IMG/VR virus record: IMGVR_UViG_3300035698_008779
Coordinates: 1 to 49,426 of that record
Source: a virus
Reading direction: 5' to 3' (one strand)
Length of the DNA: 49,426 bases
Below, piece by piece: positions 1,511-49,160 of the stretch. The notes beneath the pieces are model-generated. The model did no database searches and was not told the origin of the DNA. It was given only the letters and a program-made list of their open reading frames with translations. Within the stretch, counting starts at the first letter, position 1. The number at the start of each line of letters is the position of its first letter. The translations under genes and the position numbers were made by a program.

Positions 1511-4146
1511 GGTATAAACGCACAGCATGTGAATGCACTGGCTGCCCCCTCGGGGGGCAGGTGAAGGTGCATCCCAAGGGAGGCCTCGGTAGCGGTATCG
1601 CCTTCTTCGGTGCCGCCCCGGGTGCGGTAGAGGAAGAGACCCGATTACCCATAGCGAATGACATGAGTACGTATTTCTCATGGGCATGCGGGCATGCGGA
1701 GATTGAGAGATCACAATGTTGGGAGAGCAACGTAGTCTCTTGCCGTCTCCCACGGAACAACTGGTACAACGTAGACTCAAAGGCCGCAAGGCAACATTGC
1801 AAGGAAGGTTTCCATGAAGAACTCGATTGGCTTAAAGAACAAGGAGTCACCGTCGCCGTTGCATTCGGTCCCAATGTGGCTAGAGAATTCGGTATCGTCG
1901 GTGATATCGATGATATCCGAGGGTCAGTGTATGAATATCACGGACTCTGGATCATACCTACGTTTCACCCTTCACGGTTCCAACAACTCTCCTATTACAA
2001 AGAAGACGGAGTTATGCTGGATCGAAAGTACGCATGGATCTGCGACTTCCTCAAGGTTAAACGCATCGCAGCCAACGGATGGGCCCCTCCAGTGGAGGAT
2101 TTCAAACTCTTCCCCAGCGTGGAGGATATCGAAAGTTGGATTGCCGAAGGCCTTACTAACAACGATGTATTCGCGGTGGATATCGAAACATCCGGGTGGT
2201 CTGACAAGGGGGAAATTGTTGTCATCGGTCTTGCGCGTTCTACAACAGATGCCATGGTTGTGCCTCTCAAGCGAAAGCACGGGTTTGATTATTTCAAATC
2301 CCCCAAGGACCAAGTTAAAATAACAGAAGCGCTTAATTTACTTTTCACCACCGGGAGGTTGATGTTTCAAAATGCCCTATTCGACGTGGGATTTCTTCGA
2401 AAGAAAGGGTACACAATTCGTTATGAAGATGTTACTCACGATTCTATGTTGCTCCATCACACTGTGGCTCCTGAGCAGCCCCACCGACTCGGTTACATCG
2501 TATCCATTTATGGAGACACTCCCTACTGGAAAGACGACTTCGCGAATCGAGGGTGTCCTATTTACGAGATGGAAGATGTTGACCTACGAACATATAATGC
2601 CCGGGACTGCGTAGTACTGCATCAAGTCCTGCAACCCATGCTCACGGACCTCAAGAGGTTAGAGGTCGAACATATATACTACGACGAAGCCCTAAAGCTC
2701 CTCGCCCCCATAGGTGAAATGATGGAAACCGGGCTCGTTCTTAACACAAGGAAACTTGATGGAATCCGGAAACAGTACAAAACTAGCCTACTCGATCTTG
2801 AACGAACTCTCCGAAGTACGCCGCTCGGTGGCTTCCCTGAGGCTTTTAACTTCGACTCATCTTCGGACCTGCAGTGGCTCCTTTACCGAAGTGCCCCCGG
2901 GAAGTTCAAGAAGCTTGCCAACCTCGCGGAGTATGATCCGGAGACGTGTAGTAAACACAACAAAGATGGCAAGGCTCGTCCGAGGAAGAAGGGTACGAAA
3001 GCCTATCAAACGTTGGTTGAAATACAATGTTTACAACAAGACACCCCCGTATTCAACCTCCCTACCGGGTTCAAACCCCGACGCACTAAAGAAGGAGCAC
3101 TAAAAACCGATGAACAAGCTTGTCTTGCAGTGGATGTCGCCTTGCTACGCCGCATACGCGATATCGAATCCTTTAAGAATCCTAAGCCCAAGCACGTTGA
3201 AGAGAAAACTCTTATGCAATATCAAAGGTCATGGATTAAGCTTCACCGGGAGTACCGGGAAGTGGGTAAGATCGTGTCTACATACCTTAACTTTCCAAAG
3301 CAAAGTGATGGCAAAGTACACACGAGTTTTCTCATACATGGAACGGCGACAGGGAGACTTTCTTCTCGGGAGCCTAACTTTCAGAACCTCCCTAAAGGAC
3401 GAAAGGAGATACGGTCTATCTTCACTGCTGAGCGTGGGACCATACTCGTTAGCGCAGACTACGCCAACCTCGAGGTCCTTGTGCTCGCGTATGAAACTAA
3501 TGACTTACCGCTTATTAACACTCTTGAGAGCGGTGCGAACATGCACGATATCAATACCCGAGACCTCTTTGGGATCGATGAAGATGACCCTCTATGGGCT
3601 ATGGGGCGTAAAGCCGCTAAGGTATTTATGTTCGGAGGTATATCATATGGTGGAGGAGATAGAGAAATCTACTCGAAGGTCCTCTTAGAGGCTCCGGATT
3701 TGGACCTGCTGCTGAGTGAATATGTAGAAGCCAAGGCTAACTGGATGCTAGCACACCCGGCATATGCAGAGTGGGCCGTAAGGGTAAAAGCCGAAGCGAT
3801 GGAAACGAGGTTCACTACTACCTTCCATGGACGCAAACGCGAACTCATGGGCCGGGAGAATGATATCCTCAAGCAAGCATTGAACTCTCCCATACAAGGT
3901 GGAGCCTCTGGGGTTATCAACCCGGCCACCATACGTCTCTACGCCGCTAAGCCCCCGGAGTGGAAACTCGCGGTGCAGATACATGACCAACTCGTTATGC
4001 AGGTTCCATTGCACGAAATAGACAAATGTGTAGCTTTAATGCGACAGGAAATGGAGAGACCTGTAATAATCGGAGGCCACCTCCGGATATTCCCGGTTGA
4101 TTTCGACATAGGATATAATTTAGCCTTTGAGAAGGAGACGATATGA
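1507..4146 (+). CDS. Family A (Pol I-like) DNA polymerase with N-terminal family-4 UDG-like domain and 3'-5' exonuclease domain
   Basis: UDG-like part: CECTGC, GAAPG, VVSCRLPRNN, FHPS. Exo motifs: AVDIETSG, NALFDVGFL, YNARDCVV. Pol motifs: SADYANLEVLVLA (A), RKAAKVFMFGGISYG (B), VQIHDQLV (C). Start placed at the ATGA overlap, not at 1450. Confidence 0.9.
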   Translation: MRYKRTACECTGCPLGGQVKVHPKGGLGSGIAFFGAAPGAVEEETRLPIANDMSTYFSWACGHAEIERSQCWESNVVSCRLPRNNWYNVDSKAARQHCKEGFHEELDWLKEQGVTVAVAFGPNVAREFGIVGDIDDIRGSVYEYHGLWIIPTFHPSRFQQLSYYKEDGVMLDRKYAWICDFLKVKRIAANGWAPPVEDFKLFPSVEDIESWIAEGLTNNDVFAVDIETSGWSDKGEIVVIGLARSTTDAMVVPLKRKHGFDYFKSPKDQVKITEALNLLFTTGRLMFQNALFDVGFLRKKGYTIRYEDVTHDSMLLHHTVAPEQPHRLGYIVSIYGDTPYWKDDFANRGCPIYEMEDVDLRTYNARDCVVLHQVLQPMLTDLKRLEVEHIYYDEALKLLAPIGEMMETGLVLNTRKLDGIRKQYKTSLLDLERTLRSTPLGGFPEAFNFDSSSDLQWLLYRSAPGKFKKLANLAEYDPETCSKHNKDGKARPRKKGTKAYQTLVEIQCLQQDTPVFNLPTGFKPRRTKEGALKTDEQACLAVDVALLRRIRDIESFKNPKPKHVEEKTLMQYQRSWIKLHREYREVGKIVSTYLNFPKQSDGKVHTSFLIHGTATGRLSSREPNFQNLPKGRKEIRSIFTAERGTILVSADYANLEVLVLAYETNDLPLINTLESGANMHDINTRDLFGIDEDDPLWAMGRKAAKVFMFGGISYGGGDREIYSKVLLEAPDLDLLLSEYVEAKANWMLAHPAYAEWAVRVKAEAMETRFTTTFHGRKRELMGRENDILKQALNSPIQGGASGVINPATIRLYAAKPPEWKLAVQIHDQLVMQVPLHEIDKCVALMRQEMERPVIIGGHLRIFPVDFDIGYNLAFEKETI

Positions 4147-37259: not shown

Positions 37260-37266
37260 GACGCAA

Positions 37267-37304
37267 GGGTAAGGAGGGTAAAACCTCCTTACCCTGTTCT
37301 TTTC
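37267..37304 (+). terminator. Rho-independent terminator
   Basis: Perfect 11-bp stem GGGTAAGGAGG / CCTCCTTACCC, 6-nt loop, then TGTTCTTTT. Confidence 0.8.
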
Positions 37305-37331
37305 AAAGCATAGAAAACCCGAGACTTTCCC

Positions 37332-37407
37332 CATACTCAGCCGCGCTTGCGTGGCTTTTAATATATATCCCGTCCCGTGACCCAGAATCTCGCATACTCA
37401 GCCGCGC
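37332..37407 (+). repeat. Two 15-bp direct repeats CATACTCAGCCGCGC (37332..37346, 37393..37407) in an intergenic region
   Basis: Exact duplicates 61 bp apart. The first overlaps a second hairpin (37339..37356) that is followed by TTTT. Confidence 0.85.
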
Positions 37408-37492
37408 AATGGGGACGGGGTGGTGGGTGACCACACCCGCCGTAGGGCACGGATAGGTGGGTGAGGTGGGCAAGGCACAAGGAGCTAATAGC

Positions 37493-42202: not shown

Positions 42203-43154
42203 ACCGAAGAGAGAATCGTCGGCAGGTGGGCACTACTACGGCACGTACCGGGAGTGCCCGAGAAAGTGGTTCTTGCGGTATGTACTTGGGTATCAGCCGA
42301 CAAAGACCGCCAAGGCCCTGATATTCGGTGGCGTGATGCATGATGCGCTTGAGTTTTACTACATAGAATGCAACCGGGATGTGAAAAGTACTATAGAATT
42401 TTTCCTTAGAGCTATGAATGCTCGGCAAGAGGACTACTTCAAACCCGAGGACTACGAAGGGGATTTAGTTAAAGGTGTGAACCTCTTGAAGGTATGGCAC
42501 AACGTATGGTATGAATACGACCTCAAGCACTATGACCTCGTGAGCGTGGAGGAGCCCATGGAGTTGCGTCTCGGCCCGAATGAGGACTTTGTGTTCACAG
42601 TACGCACTGACCGTATCATGCGAGACCGCACGACGAAGGCGTATGTGATATTCGACACGAAGACCACCGGGTGGTCTATTGACGGAACGTATAAATCCGT
42701 TGATTGCCAAGACCAGATGACCTCGTATATATGGGCAGTGCAAAAGATCCACCCTGAGTGGAACGTGACGGTAGCCATTCCGGATATCATCTATAACCGA
42801 GGTAAGGTCCTGAAAGCTGAGCGCCCCGGGGAGATATACCGTGACCGGTATGCTATTGGGCAATTTGAGGCAGGTATGTATGGCACGATACTGGAAGGTA
42901 GCAGCAAAGTACAAGCATTGCTACAAGCAGGGGCTTCTACAGATCCCTCCATCCCCCAGTGGCCTGCCGAGGTGGTCTTCCCCCGAAACGGAGCCCAATG
43001 TGCCAAATTTGGATGCGACTACATCGACATATGCCGTACAAAGCAATGCGCGGAGAGGGTCCCGGTTGGGTTCCAGCGAGACGAATGGGTACGAGAAGGC
43101 CTCGAGGGGCTAAAGGGTATTAAATCATTGGAGGATTTGTATGGGAGTAATTAG
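42192..43154 (+). CDS. PD-(D/E)XK nuclease, Cas4/RecB-like exonuclease with Fe-S cysteines
   Basis: N-terminal YRECPRKWF cysteine, VIFDTKTT (D..K), QMTSYIW (QxxxY), C-terminal CAKFGCDYIDIC. Confidence 0.75.
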   Translation: MGNEPKRESSAGGHYYGTYRECPRKWFLRYVLGYQPTKTAKALIFGGVMHDALEFYYIECNRDVKSTIEFFLRAMNARQEDYFKPEDYEGDLVKGVNLLKVWHNVWYEYDLKHYDLVSVEEPMELRLGPNEDFVFTVRTDRIMRDRTTKAYVIFDTKTTGWSIDGTYKSVDCQDQMTSYIWAVQKIHPEWNVTVAIPDIIYNRGKVLKAERPGEIYRDRYAIGQFEAGMYGTILEGSSKVQALLQAGASTDPSIPQWPAEVVFPRNGAQCAKFGCDYIDICRTKQCAERVPVGFQRDEWVREGLEGLKGIKSLEDLYGSN

Positions 43155-43515
43155 CAGATTATATAAGAGAGTGTCTATCTTAGAAGAATGGAGGAATTAC
43201 TGTTATAAAGTACTTCCTGAACTACAAGCAGCAGGGAGCATGCTCAAAGCACAACGTGCTGGTGAATTACAAGGTAACGCAATACTTGCAATCCGATTGA
43301 AGGATTTGAGTAAACGCCTTGATAAGTACGAAGAAACCACAGCATGGCAAGACATGGTAGACTCCGAGCTTACTAGCCGAATATGGGGTGCAGACTGGAG
43401 GATTATACAAGTACAAACATGTTCAAAGCAGATTAAAATAGTACACGCAGGGGATAGTTGTCCGAAATGGATTAACTTCTCCGACCGACCGTGGAAAACA
43501 CAGGAGACAACATGA
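43141..43515 (+). CDS. Hypothetical protein, 124 aa (AT-richer block)
   Basis: GGAGGA 5 nt upstream. Confidence 0.6.
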   Translation: MGVISRLYKRVSILEEWRNYCYKVLPELQAAGSMLKAQRAGELQGNAILAIRLKDLSKRLDKYEETTAWQDMVDSELTSRIWGADWRIIQVQTCSKQIKIVHAGDSCPKWINFSDRPWKTQETT

Positions 43516-45885: not shown

Positions 45886-46145
45886 AATGGGAAACAGTAA
45901 CCGAATGGGAACGTAAGAACGATAAAGAGTACCCCTATTGGGCGTCTGTATGGTCATATGATGCATACGGTGAGTGCTGGGAAGGGGTATTGTGGAGAGA
46001 GCGGGTGAGTTTTTATAAAGAAGAACGAGAACGGTCAAAAGGCCGGGCAGCTTGGGATTTTCGCTACGAACCTATGGTGTGCTTGCCTTCTGATACACAT
46101 CCAAAATGGGGAGACGGGACGATGCTTGTAAGGAACCCTGTATGA
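45882..46145 (+). CDS. Trp-rich hypothetical protein, 87 aa
   Basis: ATGA coupling. Confidence 0.55.
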   Translation: MKWETVTEWERKNDKEYPYWASVWSYDAYGECWEGVLWRERVSFYKEERERSKGRAAWDFRYEPMVCLPSDTHPKWGDGTMLVRNPV

Positions 46146-46846
46146 CCCCTTCATGGACCGAGTACGACCCGAACAACCCGCCAACTGATACGAGTAAGCA
46201 TGTGTTGTGGGAGGTAGAACATGCAAACGGTGAGACTGGAGCGATATCGTGGGCTAAGGATTCTGGCCACAGGGTTCCACTTGCAATAGCGAAGCGTTGG
46301 CTCTACATCGAACCCTACGTCAAACCCGAACCCGAACTTGCCCGGTGTGGGTGTGGAGGTGAGGCCGACAGACTCAATGTCGGTGGCGTGCGTTGCTTGG
46401 CCGATGGTTGTTTCCGATTTGTTCGTGGCAACTCGCGAGCCGAATCCGACCACATATGGAACGCTGCGCAACGTAACGATAAGTTGGCCGCCGAGGGATA
46501 CACCGACTCGCAAGCTCAAACAATTACCAACGCCTGCAAGCAAACCGGCACAATCGACCGTGGCAGTTTTGCCGACCCCACGCCGCACGATATACCTGAC
46601 GAGATTGGCGCATGGACAGTCAGTACTCTGGGCGCAAGCGGGAAATGGATACGTAATGACCGCAGCCCAATGTATGCGGCCCACTACCGCAAGGTCAAGA
46701 AGTGCAAATGGACAGAGGACGAGGACGGAATTTGGGAAACGAAATGCAACAACCTCCACGAGTTTCTGGCGGACGGGCCAGTAGATAATTGCTTTGAATA
46801 CTGCCCCTACTGCGGTGGCGAGATCGCCGAGCGAGGTGAGGGATGA
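46142..46846 (+). CDS. Protein with a central Lar-like (restriction-alleviation type) zinc-ribbon segment, 234 aa
   Basis: ATGA coupling at 46142. CGCGGEADRL..VRCLADGC....AESDHIWNAAQR resembles the Lar-family pattern CPFCGGEA...C..C...eAi.aWN.R. Second ribbon: CPYCGGEI. Confidence 0.35.
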   Translation: MTPSWTEYDPNNPPTDTSKHVLWEVEHANGETGAISWAKDSGHRVPLAIAKRWLYIEPYVKPEPELARCGCGGEADRLNVGGVRCLADGCFRFVRGNSRAESDHIWNAAQRNDKLAAEGYTDSQAQTITNACKQTGTIDRGSFADPTPHDIPDEIGAWTVSTLGASGKWIRNDRSPMYAAHYRKVKKCKWTEDEDGIWETKCNNLHEFLADGPVDNCFEYCPYCGGEIAERGEG

Positions 46847-47079
46847 AAGGTAAAATAAACAAGGCAGGCTGTTTGTGTATTGAACGTGGAGGAAAGATGA
46901 CAAAGCAAGGTTGCCCGTATGGTGAAGACCCATGCTATTGCGGCGATTGGTGTCCGTTATTCGGTGAGCCGAAGGTAATGGGACCGGGGGCACAACACGT
47001 GGCATATTTACAAATCCATTGTGGCGGAGTAAGGCATTTTCAATTTGATTCATTCACCGACGAGCGAGGTAACGAATGA
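46843..47079 (+). CDS. Cys-rich hypothetical protein, 78 aa
   Basis: ATGA coupling. Confidence 0.55.
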   Translation: MKGKINKAGCLCIERGGKMTKQGCPYGEDPCYCGDWCPLFGEPKVMGPGAQHVAYLQIHCGGVRHFQFDSFTDERGNE

Positions 47080-47372
47080 CACCAGAACAGATAGACAAAC
47101 TTATAGAGTTTCGCAATAGAGAGCCGGACTTGTATTTCAGCCCCGGAAGTCATGTATACAGTATGACATGGTGCGATTGGATGAAATCGGGGGTAGACGA
47201 CCTACTCGCCGAGGTAGAGAGGCAAGCCGAAACCATCGCCGTCATGAAGGGCGAATATGCTATGCAATCGGGACGAGATACCAAATACATCTACGACACT
47301 GTTGTACTTGGTGATGCTTACGCCGTTGCGTTGAATAAAACCCATGCCGCCCTACAGGAGACCCTCTCATGA
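47076..47372 (+). CDS. Hypothetical protein, 98 aa
   Basis: ATGA coupling. Confidence 0.6.
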   Translation: MTPEQIDKLIEFRNREPDLYFSPGSHVYSMTWCDWMKSGVDDLLAEVERQAETIAVMKGEYAMQSGRDTKYIYDTVVLGDAYAVALNKTHAALQETLS

Positions 47373-47716
47373 AACCCCTACAGAATTTGCTCCTCTACCT
47401 CCTCCTCATTACTGGCGGCTTTATCATTGGCCTTACCCTTGGTAACATCAATGTTACAAAGTTACAAGCAAAGCATACTCTCGCTCTTGAAGTCGCCTAT
47501 GCAGAGAGATCGTACACCGTGGAGCTCGGTCAACGTGATGCGAAGCGGCTTGCAGCAGAAATTGAGATGCGTGAGTACTACCGGAGTAACCTCCTTGAAG
47601 CCTCAAGACGCATTAGCGAATACGCCCAATGGATCTCGGACCTGCTCATTGCTGGCCGTGAAACCCTGAATCAATTAGAGGAGATTTATGGAATTTCGCA
47701 AGTACCAGCACGTTGA
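47369..47716 (+). CDS. Membrane-anchored coiled-coil protein, 115 aa
   Basis: ATGA coupling. N-terminal TM segment LLLYLLLITGGFIIGLTLG. Confidence 0.6.
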   Translation: MKPLQNLLLYLLLITGGFIIGLTLGNINVTKLQAKHTLALEVAYAERSYTVELGQRDAKRLAAEIEMREYYRSNLLEASRRISEYAQWISDLLIAGRETLNQLEEIYGISQVPAR

Positions 47717-48593
47717 ACGGTGGGGGAATCGGGAAGTAGAAGGAATTGAAGATGGAGTATGCCATGTGTTTCCGAAAATCGACGGTACCAACGCCTCGGT
47801 ATGGTGTGAAGATGCCTCCATCTGCACAGGAAGTAGAAACCGTGAACTTGAGGAAGGAAGTGATAATGCTGGCTTCCGAGCATGGGCAATCGATAGCGTC
47901 GAACTCAGCACGTACTTCGCAAAGAACCCGAGTCACCGGCTCTTCGGTGAGTGGCTCGTACCCCATTCTCTCAAGACCTACAAGCCGGAAGCGTGGCGGA
48001 AGTTCTACGTCTTCGATGTCGTGGTGGAGAATGGCACCGAGGATTTCATGTACATGCCATACGAGATATACAAGCCCCTATTGGAAGACGCAGGACTGCT
48101 GTATACCCCCTTAATGGCGTATGTGAAAAGCGGTACCTACGACCAATTCATCGATCAGCTTAAGAAGAATACCTTCCTCATCGAGGACGGGAAGGGCATT
48201 GGTGAAGGAATCGTGATTAAGAACTACGGCTTTTGCAATCGCCATGGGCGTACCACATGGGCGAAAATCGTAAGCAACGAGTTCATGGAAGATCATAAGG
48301 GCACAATGGGGGCGCCGGTGGTGAAAGGGGCTACCGCGATGGAGATGAAAATCGCAAATGAATTCGTCACCAAGATGCTGGTGGAGAAAGAGTATGCGAA
48401 GATAACCAATGTAGAAGACGGGTGGGATAGTAAGTTCATCCCCCAGCTCCTACATACCTGCTTCTATGTGCTCATCACGGAAGAAATCTGGCAGGTGTTG
48501 AAGCGGTTCAAAAACCCCACCATCGACTTCAAAGCAATGCACAATGCCGTCACATATATGGTGAAAACCCACATGCCGGAGGTGTTTACATAG
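47688..48593 (+). CDS. RNA-ligase-family nucleotidyltransferase (ATP-dependent RNA/DNA ligase superfamily)
   Basis: Motif I FPKIDGTN (KxDG), LFGEWL (motif III-like), FYVFDV (motif IIIa/IV-like), GEGIVIK (motif IV/V-like). GAGGAGA SD. Confidence 0.7.
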   Translation: MEFRKYQHVERWGNREVEGIEDGVCHVFPKIDGTNASVWCEDASICTGSRNRELEEGSDNAGFRAWAIDSVELSTYFAKNPSHRLFGEWLVPHSLKTYKPEAWRKFYVFDVVVENGTEDFMYMPYEIYKPLLEDAGLLYTPLMAYVKSGTYDQFIDQLKKNTFLIEDGKGIGEGIVIKNYGFCNRHGRTTWAKIVSNEFMEDHKGTMGAPVVKGATAMEMKIANEFVTKMLVEKEYAKITNVEDGWDSKFIPQLLHTCFYVLITEEIWQVLKRFKNPTIDFKAMHNAVTYMVKTHMPEVFT

Positions 48594-48829
48594 AGAATTC
48601 CTTTTCCTTGGGGGGTGTTGGAAGTGTACCTATCACATTAGTAAACAAGTCCCGACAACGGAGTAGGAAGGAAATAGAATGGCCCGGGACTGATAATCCG
48701 GATACCATGAATACCTTCCCTTGGAGGTGCAAATCCTCCTCCCCCATAGAGACAGTGGATTGGTCGTTGACCTGCCCCGCTGTCCAAAATTGTTACCTGC
48801 TTGAACAGGACGTAGGTAAAAGAGCAAGG

Positions 48830-48862
48830 AAGGGGGGATAACCTCTCCCCCCTTTTCTTGTT
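48830..48862 (+). terminator. Rho-independent terminator
   Basis: GGGGGGA-taacctc-TCCCCCC followed by TTTTCTTGTT. Confidence 0.75.
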
Positions 48863-48881
48863 CGACTTAATAGGAGAATGA

Positions 48882-49160
48882 ATGGAAATAAATAGATACC
48901 TCCCACAAGGGGACCGATTGCTCCTCCGCCCGCTTCGTGATGCCCCACGGCAAAGGGGTATCATCATACCCGAGACGGCCCGGAAGAATCGCTACAGCGC
49001 ATTAGTGCTCGAAGTCGGGCCCGATGTGAAGTCCAAAGCCCTCACTCGCTACACCACTGTTATGTACGACAACCATGCAGGGGTACTAGTTGACCGAGAG
49101 CGTAATTACCTCATCGTCGTGGAAGACGACATTATTGCAATCATCGAGGAGGATGAATAA
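48882..49160 (+). CDS. groES: GroES-like co-chaperonin (Cpn10)
   Basis: LRPLRD....GIIIPETARKNRYSALVLEVGPDV...DIIAIIEE parallels GroES (L.PL.DRV....GI.LP..A.EK...G.VVAVG.G...DILA). 92 aa. AGGAG SD. Confidence 0.7.
   Translation: MEINRYLPQGDRLLLRPLRDAPRQRGIIIPETARKNRYSALVLEVGPDVKSKALTRYTTVMYDNHAGVLVDRERNYLIVVEDDIIAIIEEDE

Follow-up and report, generated by a model that had tools for sequence, protein, structure and literature searches.

To our knowledge, phage T4 repairs host tRNAs with no tRNA-like RNA encoded beside its ligase gene. Y RNAs (YrlA) are non-coding RNAs of ~100-150 nt with a tRNA-like module and a long closing stem, and are sometimes found near RNA-repair ligase genes. An earlier note on the DNA described here, made from the letters alone, drew attention to a segment directly behind a phage RNA-ligase-family gene; it described the segment as untranslated and structured, with tRNA-like acceptor and T-arm features, and regarded its position as suggestive in view of the T4 system (Rnl1/Pnkp versus PrrC). 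Here, we follow up that note in the whole stretch of DNA from which it was made (hereafter the window), IMG/VR virus record IMGVR_UViG_3300035698_008779, a complete record of 49,426 bp (positions 1 to 49,426). On balance, the segment is probably the untranslated 3′ tail of a transcript that ends with the ligase gene, closed by a strong Rho-independent terminator. An untranslated region of this sort at the end of an operon is an already known kind of element, not a new one.

Genomic setting of the ligase gene

The record carries a terminal overlap of 25 bp and is therefore taken as a circular assembly. The phage is uncultivated and podovirus-like; its genome encodes a family A DNA polymerase, a primase/helicase-like protein, terminase, portal, capsid, an exonuclease and a Sak4-like annealing protein, and contains no match to the tyrosine or serine recombinase (integrase) families PF00589 and PF00239. 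The plus-strand gene arm runs from ~35.6 kb across the record’s junction to 6.2 kb. Genes from 46106 to 48593 overlap or abut, and the ligase gene, whose stop codon ends at 48593, is the last in this run (Table 1). Beyond the terminator lie the GroES-like gene, small genes and the DNA polymerase gene. The GroES-like gene is highly divergent, with one homolog only (40% identity) among 5.8 billion clusters and none found by a pattern search of IMG/VR. Its SD is followed by two overlapping ATGs (ATGAATG, 48878-48884), the first opening a 5-codon mini-frame and the second the 92-aa gene. The spacer between the ligase stop and the terminator, presumed to be the ligase transcript’s 3′ tail, resembles the neighbouring sequence in composition, and no repeats or promoter motif shared with other gaps of the genome were found in it.

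Table 1 Features of the ligase–GroES-like locus and tRNA genes beside related ligases
Feature	Coordinates	Strand	Evidence or remarks
RNA-ligase-family gene, 301 aa	47688..48593	+	Pfam PF09414 E 8.5e-17; phrog_548 ‘RNA ligase’ E 3.8e-44
Ligase-to-GroES-like gap, 288 nt	48594..48881	+	Between two genes
Spacer, almost certainly untranslated, four local hairpin domains	48594..48821	+	No coding support; fold z -2.26
77-aa open frame, judged non-gene	48608..48841	+	TTG start, no SD; sole ORF in gap
138-nt domain closed by a predicted 7-bp UGGGGGG/UCCCCCA helix (‘acceptor’)	48609..48746	+	Helix in MFE, P 0.79; domain z -1.93
Nested hairpin GGAAGG/CCUUCC around AUGG/CCAU and CCGGG/UCCGG	48666..48719	+	MFE; inner stem P 0.95
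T-arm-like hairpin GGAGG-UGCAAAU-CCUCC	48723..48739	+	RF00005 match at chance level (E 1.98); pair probability 0.16
Two more local hairpins, 48751-58/48777-84 and 48793-800/48812-19	48751..48819	+	MFE; stable in every co-transcriptional snapshot
Intrinsic terminator, 17-bp stem, G6/C6 core, 7-nt loop, U-rich run	48822..48863	+	Terminator scan, MFE
GroES-like SD AGGAGA	48872..48877	+	Predicted pairing with UUUUCCU 48602-48608
GroES/Cpn10-like gene, first after terminator	48882..49160	+	Pfam PF00166 E 9.3e-10; phrog_3188 E 5e-7
tRNA genes by related ligases	L071:1151-1469 and 3363-3446; L084:3097-3290; L088:1383-1471; L107:1407-1480		

Coding potential of the gap

The only open reading frame in the gap, a 77-aa frame with a TTG start and no SD, is present as the earlier note described it, beginning 15 nt past the ligase stop and ending within the terminator loop. 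Its codon score (per-codon codon-usage log-odds, trained on the phage’s long genes) is -0.012, compared to a mean of 0.21 and a minimum of -0.08 for 31 presumed small genes of the phage, and lies below that of 28 of them. No Pfam or PHROG family matches the frame, and an exhaustive phmmer search of 1.84 billion representative proteins returned no true homolog, only a single spurious match. Frames on the opposite strand across the gap have no Pfam or PHROG support, and no protein homolog was found for any frame of the gap. Given the TTG start, the missing SD, the low codon score and the lack of a real homolog, the segment is almost certainly untranslated, in agreement with the earlier reading.

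The one protein matched by the 77-aa frame (P0121) is 442 aa long and is built of some eight repeats of 52 residues each, apparently the translation of a tandem DNA repeat. Its score is the sum over six copies of a weak 29-residue match, and HMMER scores are inflated by such repeat summing. The frame itself is stop-free for 135 codons from 48434, reaching 160 nt into the ligase gene, and has no start before 48608. The genome has many long spurious open frames, for example a 300-aa antisense frame at 46151..47053. We also considered a frameshift fusion of the ligase with the 77-aa frame, which is open from 48434, and rejected it since the shift would delete invariant C-terminal residues of the ligase.

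We consider it very improbable that a small protein is made here, from the 77-aa frame or from its 44-aa ATG sub-frame starting at 48707, by reinitiation after the ligase stop. Such a product would be compatible with an open frame whose start is so close behind the ligase stop and whose end falls inside the terminator loop, and three presumed small genes of the phage score equally low on codon usage. However, the start codon and missing SD, a codon score under nearly all of the small genes, the lack of a PHROG or Pfam family and a database record whose only entry is a translated tandem repeat all speak against translation.

Predicted structure of the segment

The sequence elements that gave the segment its tRNA-like look are all in place. 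GGAGG-TGCAAAT-CCTCC (48723..48739) is directly abutted by TCCCCCA (48740..48746), which can pair over 7 bp with TGGGGGG (48609..48615), and the hairpin formed by 48666..48671 with 48714..48719 encloses the CCGG/CCGG stem noted earlier, here extended to CCGGG/TCCGG (48684-88 / 48697-701). Thermodynamic prediction, in contrast, gives these elements unequal weight. The 7-bp helix and the inner stem of the nested hairpin are predicted with high probability (Table 1), whereas the T-arm hairpin takes up only a minor share of the ensemble (P 0.16), since GGAGGUGCA pairs preferentially with 48625-31 in a competing predicted helix (48625-31/48725-31, P 0.84). The cloverleaf-like fold of the earlier reader lies 1.4 kcal/mol above the MFE and is thus possible, not favoured.

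The fold z of the whole gap is -4.57, which is owed mostly to the 17-bp terminator. When that hairpin is left out, z becomes -2.26 (48594-48818) or -1.93 (48600-48755), and -1.71 on the complementary strand. Of 99 other 225-nt windows taken at even spacing along the genome, the majority of them coding, 7 reach a z of -2.26. With a z of about -2 outside the terminator, which does not exceed the background of this genome, the folding models support the earlier description of the segment as structured only weakly.

Resemblance to tRNA

ARAGORN reported 0 tRNA genes in the whole 49,426-nt window in its standard mode and 0 genes in its intron, mitochondrial and tmRNA modes, with no tmRNA even at a relaxed threshold. 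Rfam 15 likewise gave 0 matches in the whole window at gathering scores, and at E<=10 only chance matches (mir-483, ar14 and snoRNA-type, E>1) with no tmRNA among them. Both of these scans had been proposed as checks by the earlier note, which also named a lack of hits as an outcome that would tell against its proposal; no tRNA, tmRNA or Rfam match was found. A ‘tRNA-Arg(CCG)’ called by ARAGORN at 48667-48746 with the -ps70 setting was rejected as noise, being 1 of 166 such calls in 49 kb.

The sole match of the tRNA model RF00005 in the genome is the T-arm-like hairpin, which aligns to model positions 46-63 with 9.9 bits (E 1.98), compared to a gathering threshold of 29 bits. The spacing from the acceptor 5′ strand to the T arm is 107 nt vs. 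about 41 in tRNA, and manual reading finds three of the four D-stem pairs and no anticodon stem. The earlier note was thus right not to call the segment a tRNA, on the grounds that it is too long and that D and anticodon arms could not be built.

We then asked how often the combination of features arises by chance, using a pattern made up of a 5-bp stem, a 7-nt loop with <=1 mismatch to TTCRANY and, directly next to the stem, a 7-mer with a pairing partner 40-200 nt upstream. The pattern occurs twice in the real genome, and at least once in 15% of 300 dinucleotide shuffles of it. For the pre-chosen 288-nt gap it is rare, at roughly 5e-4 (scaled) before allowing for freedom in the choice of pattern; this speaks mildly against chance alone, with a discount for a pattern that was picked after looking. 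The second copy (AATCC-TTCAATC-GGATT then GCAAGTA, ~43283-43306, minus strand) lies antisense in the gene at 43141..43515 and is clearly a chance occurrence. The exact 24-mer formed by the T arm and the acceptor strand is not present in viral, species-genome or metagenome collections, and an attP site carrying a tRNA fragment was rejected because the genome has no integrase match and the 24-mer is in no species genome.

With no ARAGORN or Rfam match, a model score of 9.9 bits and a pattern found in 15% of shuffles, the acceptor and T-arm features do not stand as more than chance, and we conclude that the tRNA-like look is no better than chance. The resemblance would then be a coincidence of the G-runs, C-runs and GGAGG/CCUCC tracts in this stretch.

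Terminator and probable end of the transcription unit

The terminator placed by the earlier note at 48830 was found at about that position, with a full stem of 48822-38 / 48846-63 followed by UUUUCUUGUU. A GC-rich hairpin stands directly before a U-run on the transcribed strand, as is characteristic of Rho-independent termination. The terminator lies 229 nt past the ligase stop and 24 nt ahead of the next start codon, and is one of only two strong plus-strand terminators in the early/middle arm (37266-37295 and 48822-48863). In related loci, a terminator-like hairpin with a T-run follows the ligase stop by at most 300 nt in 25 of 77 distinct cases, 14 of them within 150 nt, at a median distance of 135 nt from the stop. 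Ligase genes of this family thus often close their transcription unit. Very strong terminators lie within 30-100 nt of related ligases (53-55% identity) at L002:1578-1701, L008:3904-4028 and L004:3904-4059.

Downstream of the other strong terminator of the arm, at 37266-37295, the 15-mer CATACTCAGCCGCGC is present in two exact copies (37332 and 37393, a spacing of 61 nt; region 37260-37456), and a further hairpin with a T-run overlaps the first copy. When up to 3 mismatches are allowed, CATACTCAGCCGCGC occurs 5 times in the genome vs. 0.85 expected, and the exact pair may be a phage promoter/operator pair for middle genes.

The ligase family and its relatives

The ligase has 4923 homologs, the best of which is only 59% identical. 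Its family matches assign it to the PF09414/phrog_548 (Rnl2-like) type rather than to that of T4 Rnl1 (PF09511); PF09511 has no match in the genome, a search in which the control genomes were also silent. No Pnkp-like kinase was found at the family threshold, AAA_33 matching only the Sak4-like ATPase with 12 bits, below the cut-off. With a ligase of this type and no kinase at the family threshold, the parallel to T4 Rnl1/Pnkp versus PrrC that made the position seem suggestive is not borne out. A Y-RNA/Rsr particle was rejected as well: Rsr/TROVE (PF05731) is absent from the genome, and the YrlA model RF02553 has no match in the segment, its best match lying elsewhere in the genome (9.1 bits, E 3.9).

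Genes downstream of the ligase vary among loci (8, then 80 more IMG/VR ligase loci). An nhmmer search with the segment found nothing related in these 88 loci, and a covariance model of 48605-48750 (R1), limited in reach because it was built from a single sequence, matched only itself among the 88 loci and nothing in 51 whole phage records. These results lend no support to the tie between segment and ligase that the earlier note had suggested. Rfam gave no match on the 20 loci with the longest post-ligase gaps, blastn against 50,697 phage records found no copy or close relative, and PF11443 (DUF2828) had no match in 50 ligase-bearing phage records, with control genomes also silent. Descent of the gap, by decay, from the genes found downstream of the ligase in relatives was rejected, since tblastn of those genes against it gave noise only. 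One related locus has a 354-nt ORF-free, AT-rich gap after the ligase (L047:2419-2772) with a long predicted closing structure and no Rfam match. Four of 80 related loci have genuine tRNA genes, including one four-gene array, directly next to the ligase gene and no more than 1.5 kb away from it (Table 1).

Close relatives of the phage were sought via the ligase (best 59%), the GroES-like gene (40%), the polymerase, Sak4 and blastn, and none were found. The nearest complete relative by terminase, at 45%, has neither the ligase nor the GroES-like gene, and the sequence ahead of its polymerase gene is unrelated. All comparisons are thus with distant relatives (records very near the window may be left out), and they show a lack of detectable copies, not a lack of conservation.

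Discussion

If the segment is an ordinary untranslated tail, as we favour, the terminator would form the boundary between a recombination/ligase block and a block comprising the GroES-like gene, small genes and the DNA polymerase gene. It is in any case useful for transcription-unit annotation, where it separates the ligase block from the GroES-like/polymerase block. The ~230 nt ahead of it would have no tRNA-related function and may represent a spacer left by module shuffling or gene loss, contributing at most hairpins that stabilise the 3′ end, and the downstream genes would be expressed via partial read-through of the terminator. A promoter would not fit between the terminator and the GroES-like start, so the downstream genes need read-through, which could be regulated; this counts against an ordinary tail. 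So do the otherwise tight packing of the genome, which makes a functionless stretch of 229 nt somewhat unexpected, the rarity of the T-arm-plus-acceptor pattern when the gap alone is considered, and the predicted pairing of the next gene’s SD, which is weaker in 149 of 150 upstream shuffles. It is possible that the segment acts in cis regulation or as a small RNA.

The main rival to the ordinary tail, which we nevertheless regard as unlikely, is a cis-acting gate in which tail and terminator set the flow of transcription and translation from the ligase block into the GroES-like/polymerase block. The pyrimidine tract 48599-48608 would pair with the next SD (48872-78) and, during transcription, with the lower part of the terminator’s 5′ arm; a ribosome that terminates at the end of the ligase gene would free these partners, resulting in long-range translational coupling or attenuation. 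Consistent with this mechanism, the predicted SD helix (48602-08/48872-78) has P 0.89-0.99 in three sequence contexts, a pairing level that only 1 of 150 upstream shuffles matches; in the predicted co-transcriptional snapshots, 48599-48609 is paired with 48826-48836 for as long as the terminator lacks its 3′ arm; and the ligase stop lies 6-9 nt ahead of the tract, with no promoter fitting between the terminator and the start codon. But the SD pairing of the GroES-like gene ranks 25th of 60 phage genes (24 higher) and so is not unusual, a 6-7-bp SD complement is, by our estimate, expected about half the time in 280 nt of pyrimidine-rich sequence, and comparative support is absent. A true antiterminator was rejected, as the G6/C6 core hairpin and the U-run form in every snapshot. 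A shade less probable than the gate is that a gene has been lost here, either for a small protein or for a tRNA, and that the gap preserves what decay has left of it between the ligase and its original terminator; the T-arm and the acceptor 3′ strand would be its best-preserved pieces. The tRNA genes beside related ligases (L071, L084, L088 and L107), the shorter terminator distances usual in related loci, the 78-codon frame still open across the gap and the fact that the T-arm-like hairpin is the genome’s only tRNA-model match all fit this history. That match is at chance level, however, the D and anticodon arms are not buildable, the loop has G where U55 belongs, no frame has a protein homolog, and tblastn with the neighbours’ genes against the gap returned noise.

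A further reading, which takes up the idea of the earlier note and which we find improbable, is a small RNA that acts in trans or binds protein. It might mimic the shape of a tRNA and be a substrate, decoy or partner for the ligase next to it, and it would be transcribed from a promoter of its own (CCGACA-17-TAGAAT, 48652-48680) or processed out of the 3′ tail. A four-way cloverleaf-like fold with the T-arm abutting the acceptor strand lies close to the MFE, the terminator would give a defined 3′ end, and the loop UGCAA fits what we take to be the general T-loop pattern U-N-N-R-A. On the other hand, no RNA family matches, the T hairpin is the lesser conformer, no related element occurs by the 88 ligase genes or in the 51 phage records, and partners of the Rsr, Rnl1 or Pnkp kind have no match (with the Rnl1 search controls silent). 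The promoter matches 9 of 12 positions, and such matches are not enriched (1 vs. 2.1 expected; 12 vs. 17.4). More doubtful still is the specific proposal that 48609-48746 is an orphan enlarged cloverleaf RNA released from the ligase 3′ tail, acting as ligase substrate, decoy or guide, or as a gate on the GroES-like/polymerase genes; in such an RNA the T-loop hairpin would stack on the 7-bp acceptor-like helix, and the D-like and anticodon-like arms would be oversized. If true, this would constitute a new class of tRNA mimic without sampled relatives, and a tRNA-like reading in general would provide an RNA partner and a testable function for a widespread phage ligase family.

Comparison with known systems

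The locus shares with T4 Rnl1-Pnkp versus PrrC a phage-encoded ligase of the nucleotidyl-transferase superfamily, but T4 combines Rnl1 with Pnkp, whereas the ligase here belongs to the PF09414/phrog_548 type. Unlike bacterial and phage Y RNAs (YrlA) with Rsr/Ro60, the segment is found in a genome without a TROVE/Rsr gene and is negative for the YrlA model. It resembles tRNA (RF00005) in a 5-bp stem with the equivalent of G53-C61, a 7-nt loop (U-G-C-A-A-A-U) and a 7-nt strand directly after the T arm that pairs with an upstream 7-mer; it differs from tRNA in having no D arm, anticodon arm or CCA, in the G in place of U55, in a model score far under the gathering threshold and in a negative ARAGORN result. 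A T arm and acceptor 3′ strand without the rest of a tRNA also recall a phage attP core, the copy of a host tRNA 3′ end, but here there is no tyrosine or serine recombinase and the 24-mer is missing from 185,579 species genomes. The likeness is greatest to an operon-end Rho-independent terminator with a long 3′ UTR, in which a hairpin and U-run follow the last gene of a co-directional block. Compared to the operon-end terminators of its ligase relatives, the one described here stands farther from the stop (229 nt vs. a median of 135 nt), and it lies only 24 nt from the next start, so that the downstream genes depend on read-through.
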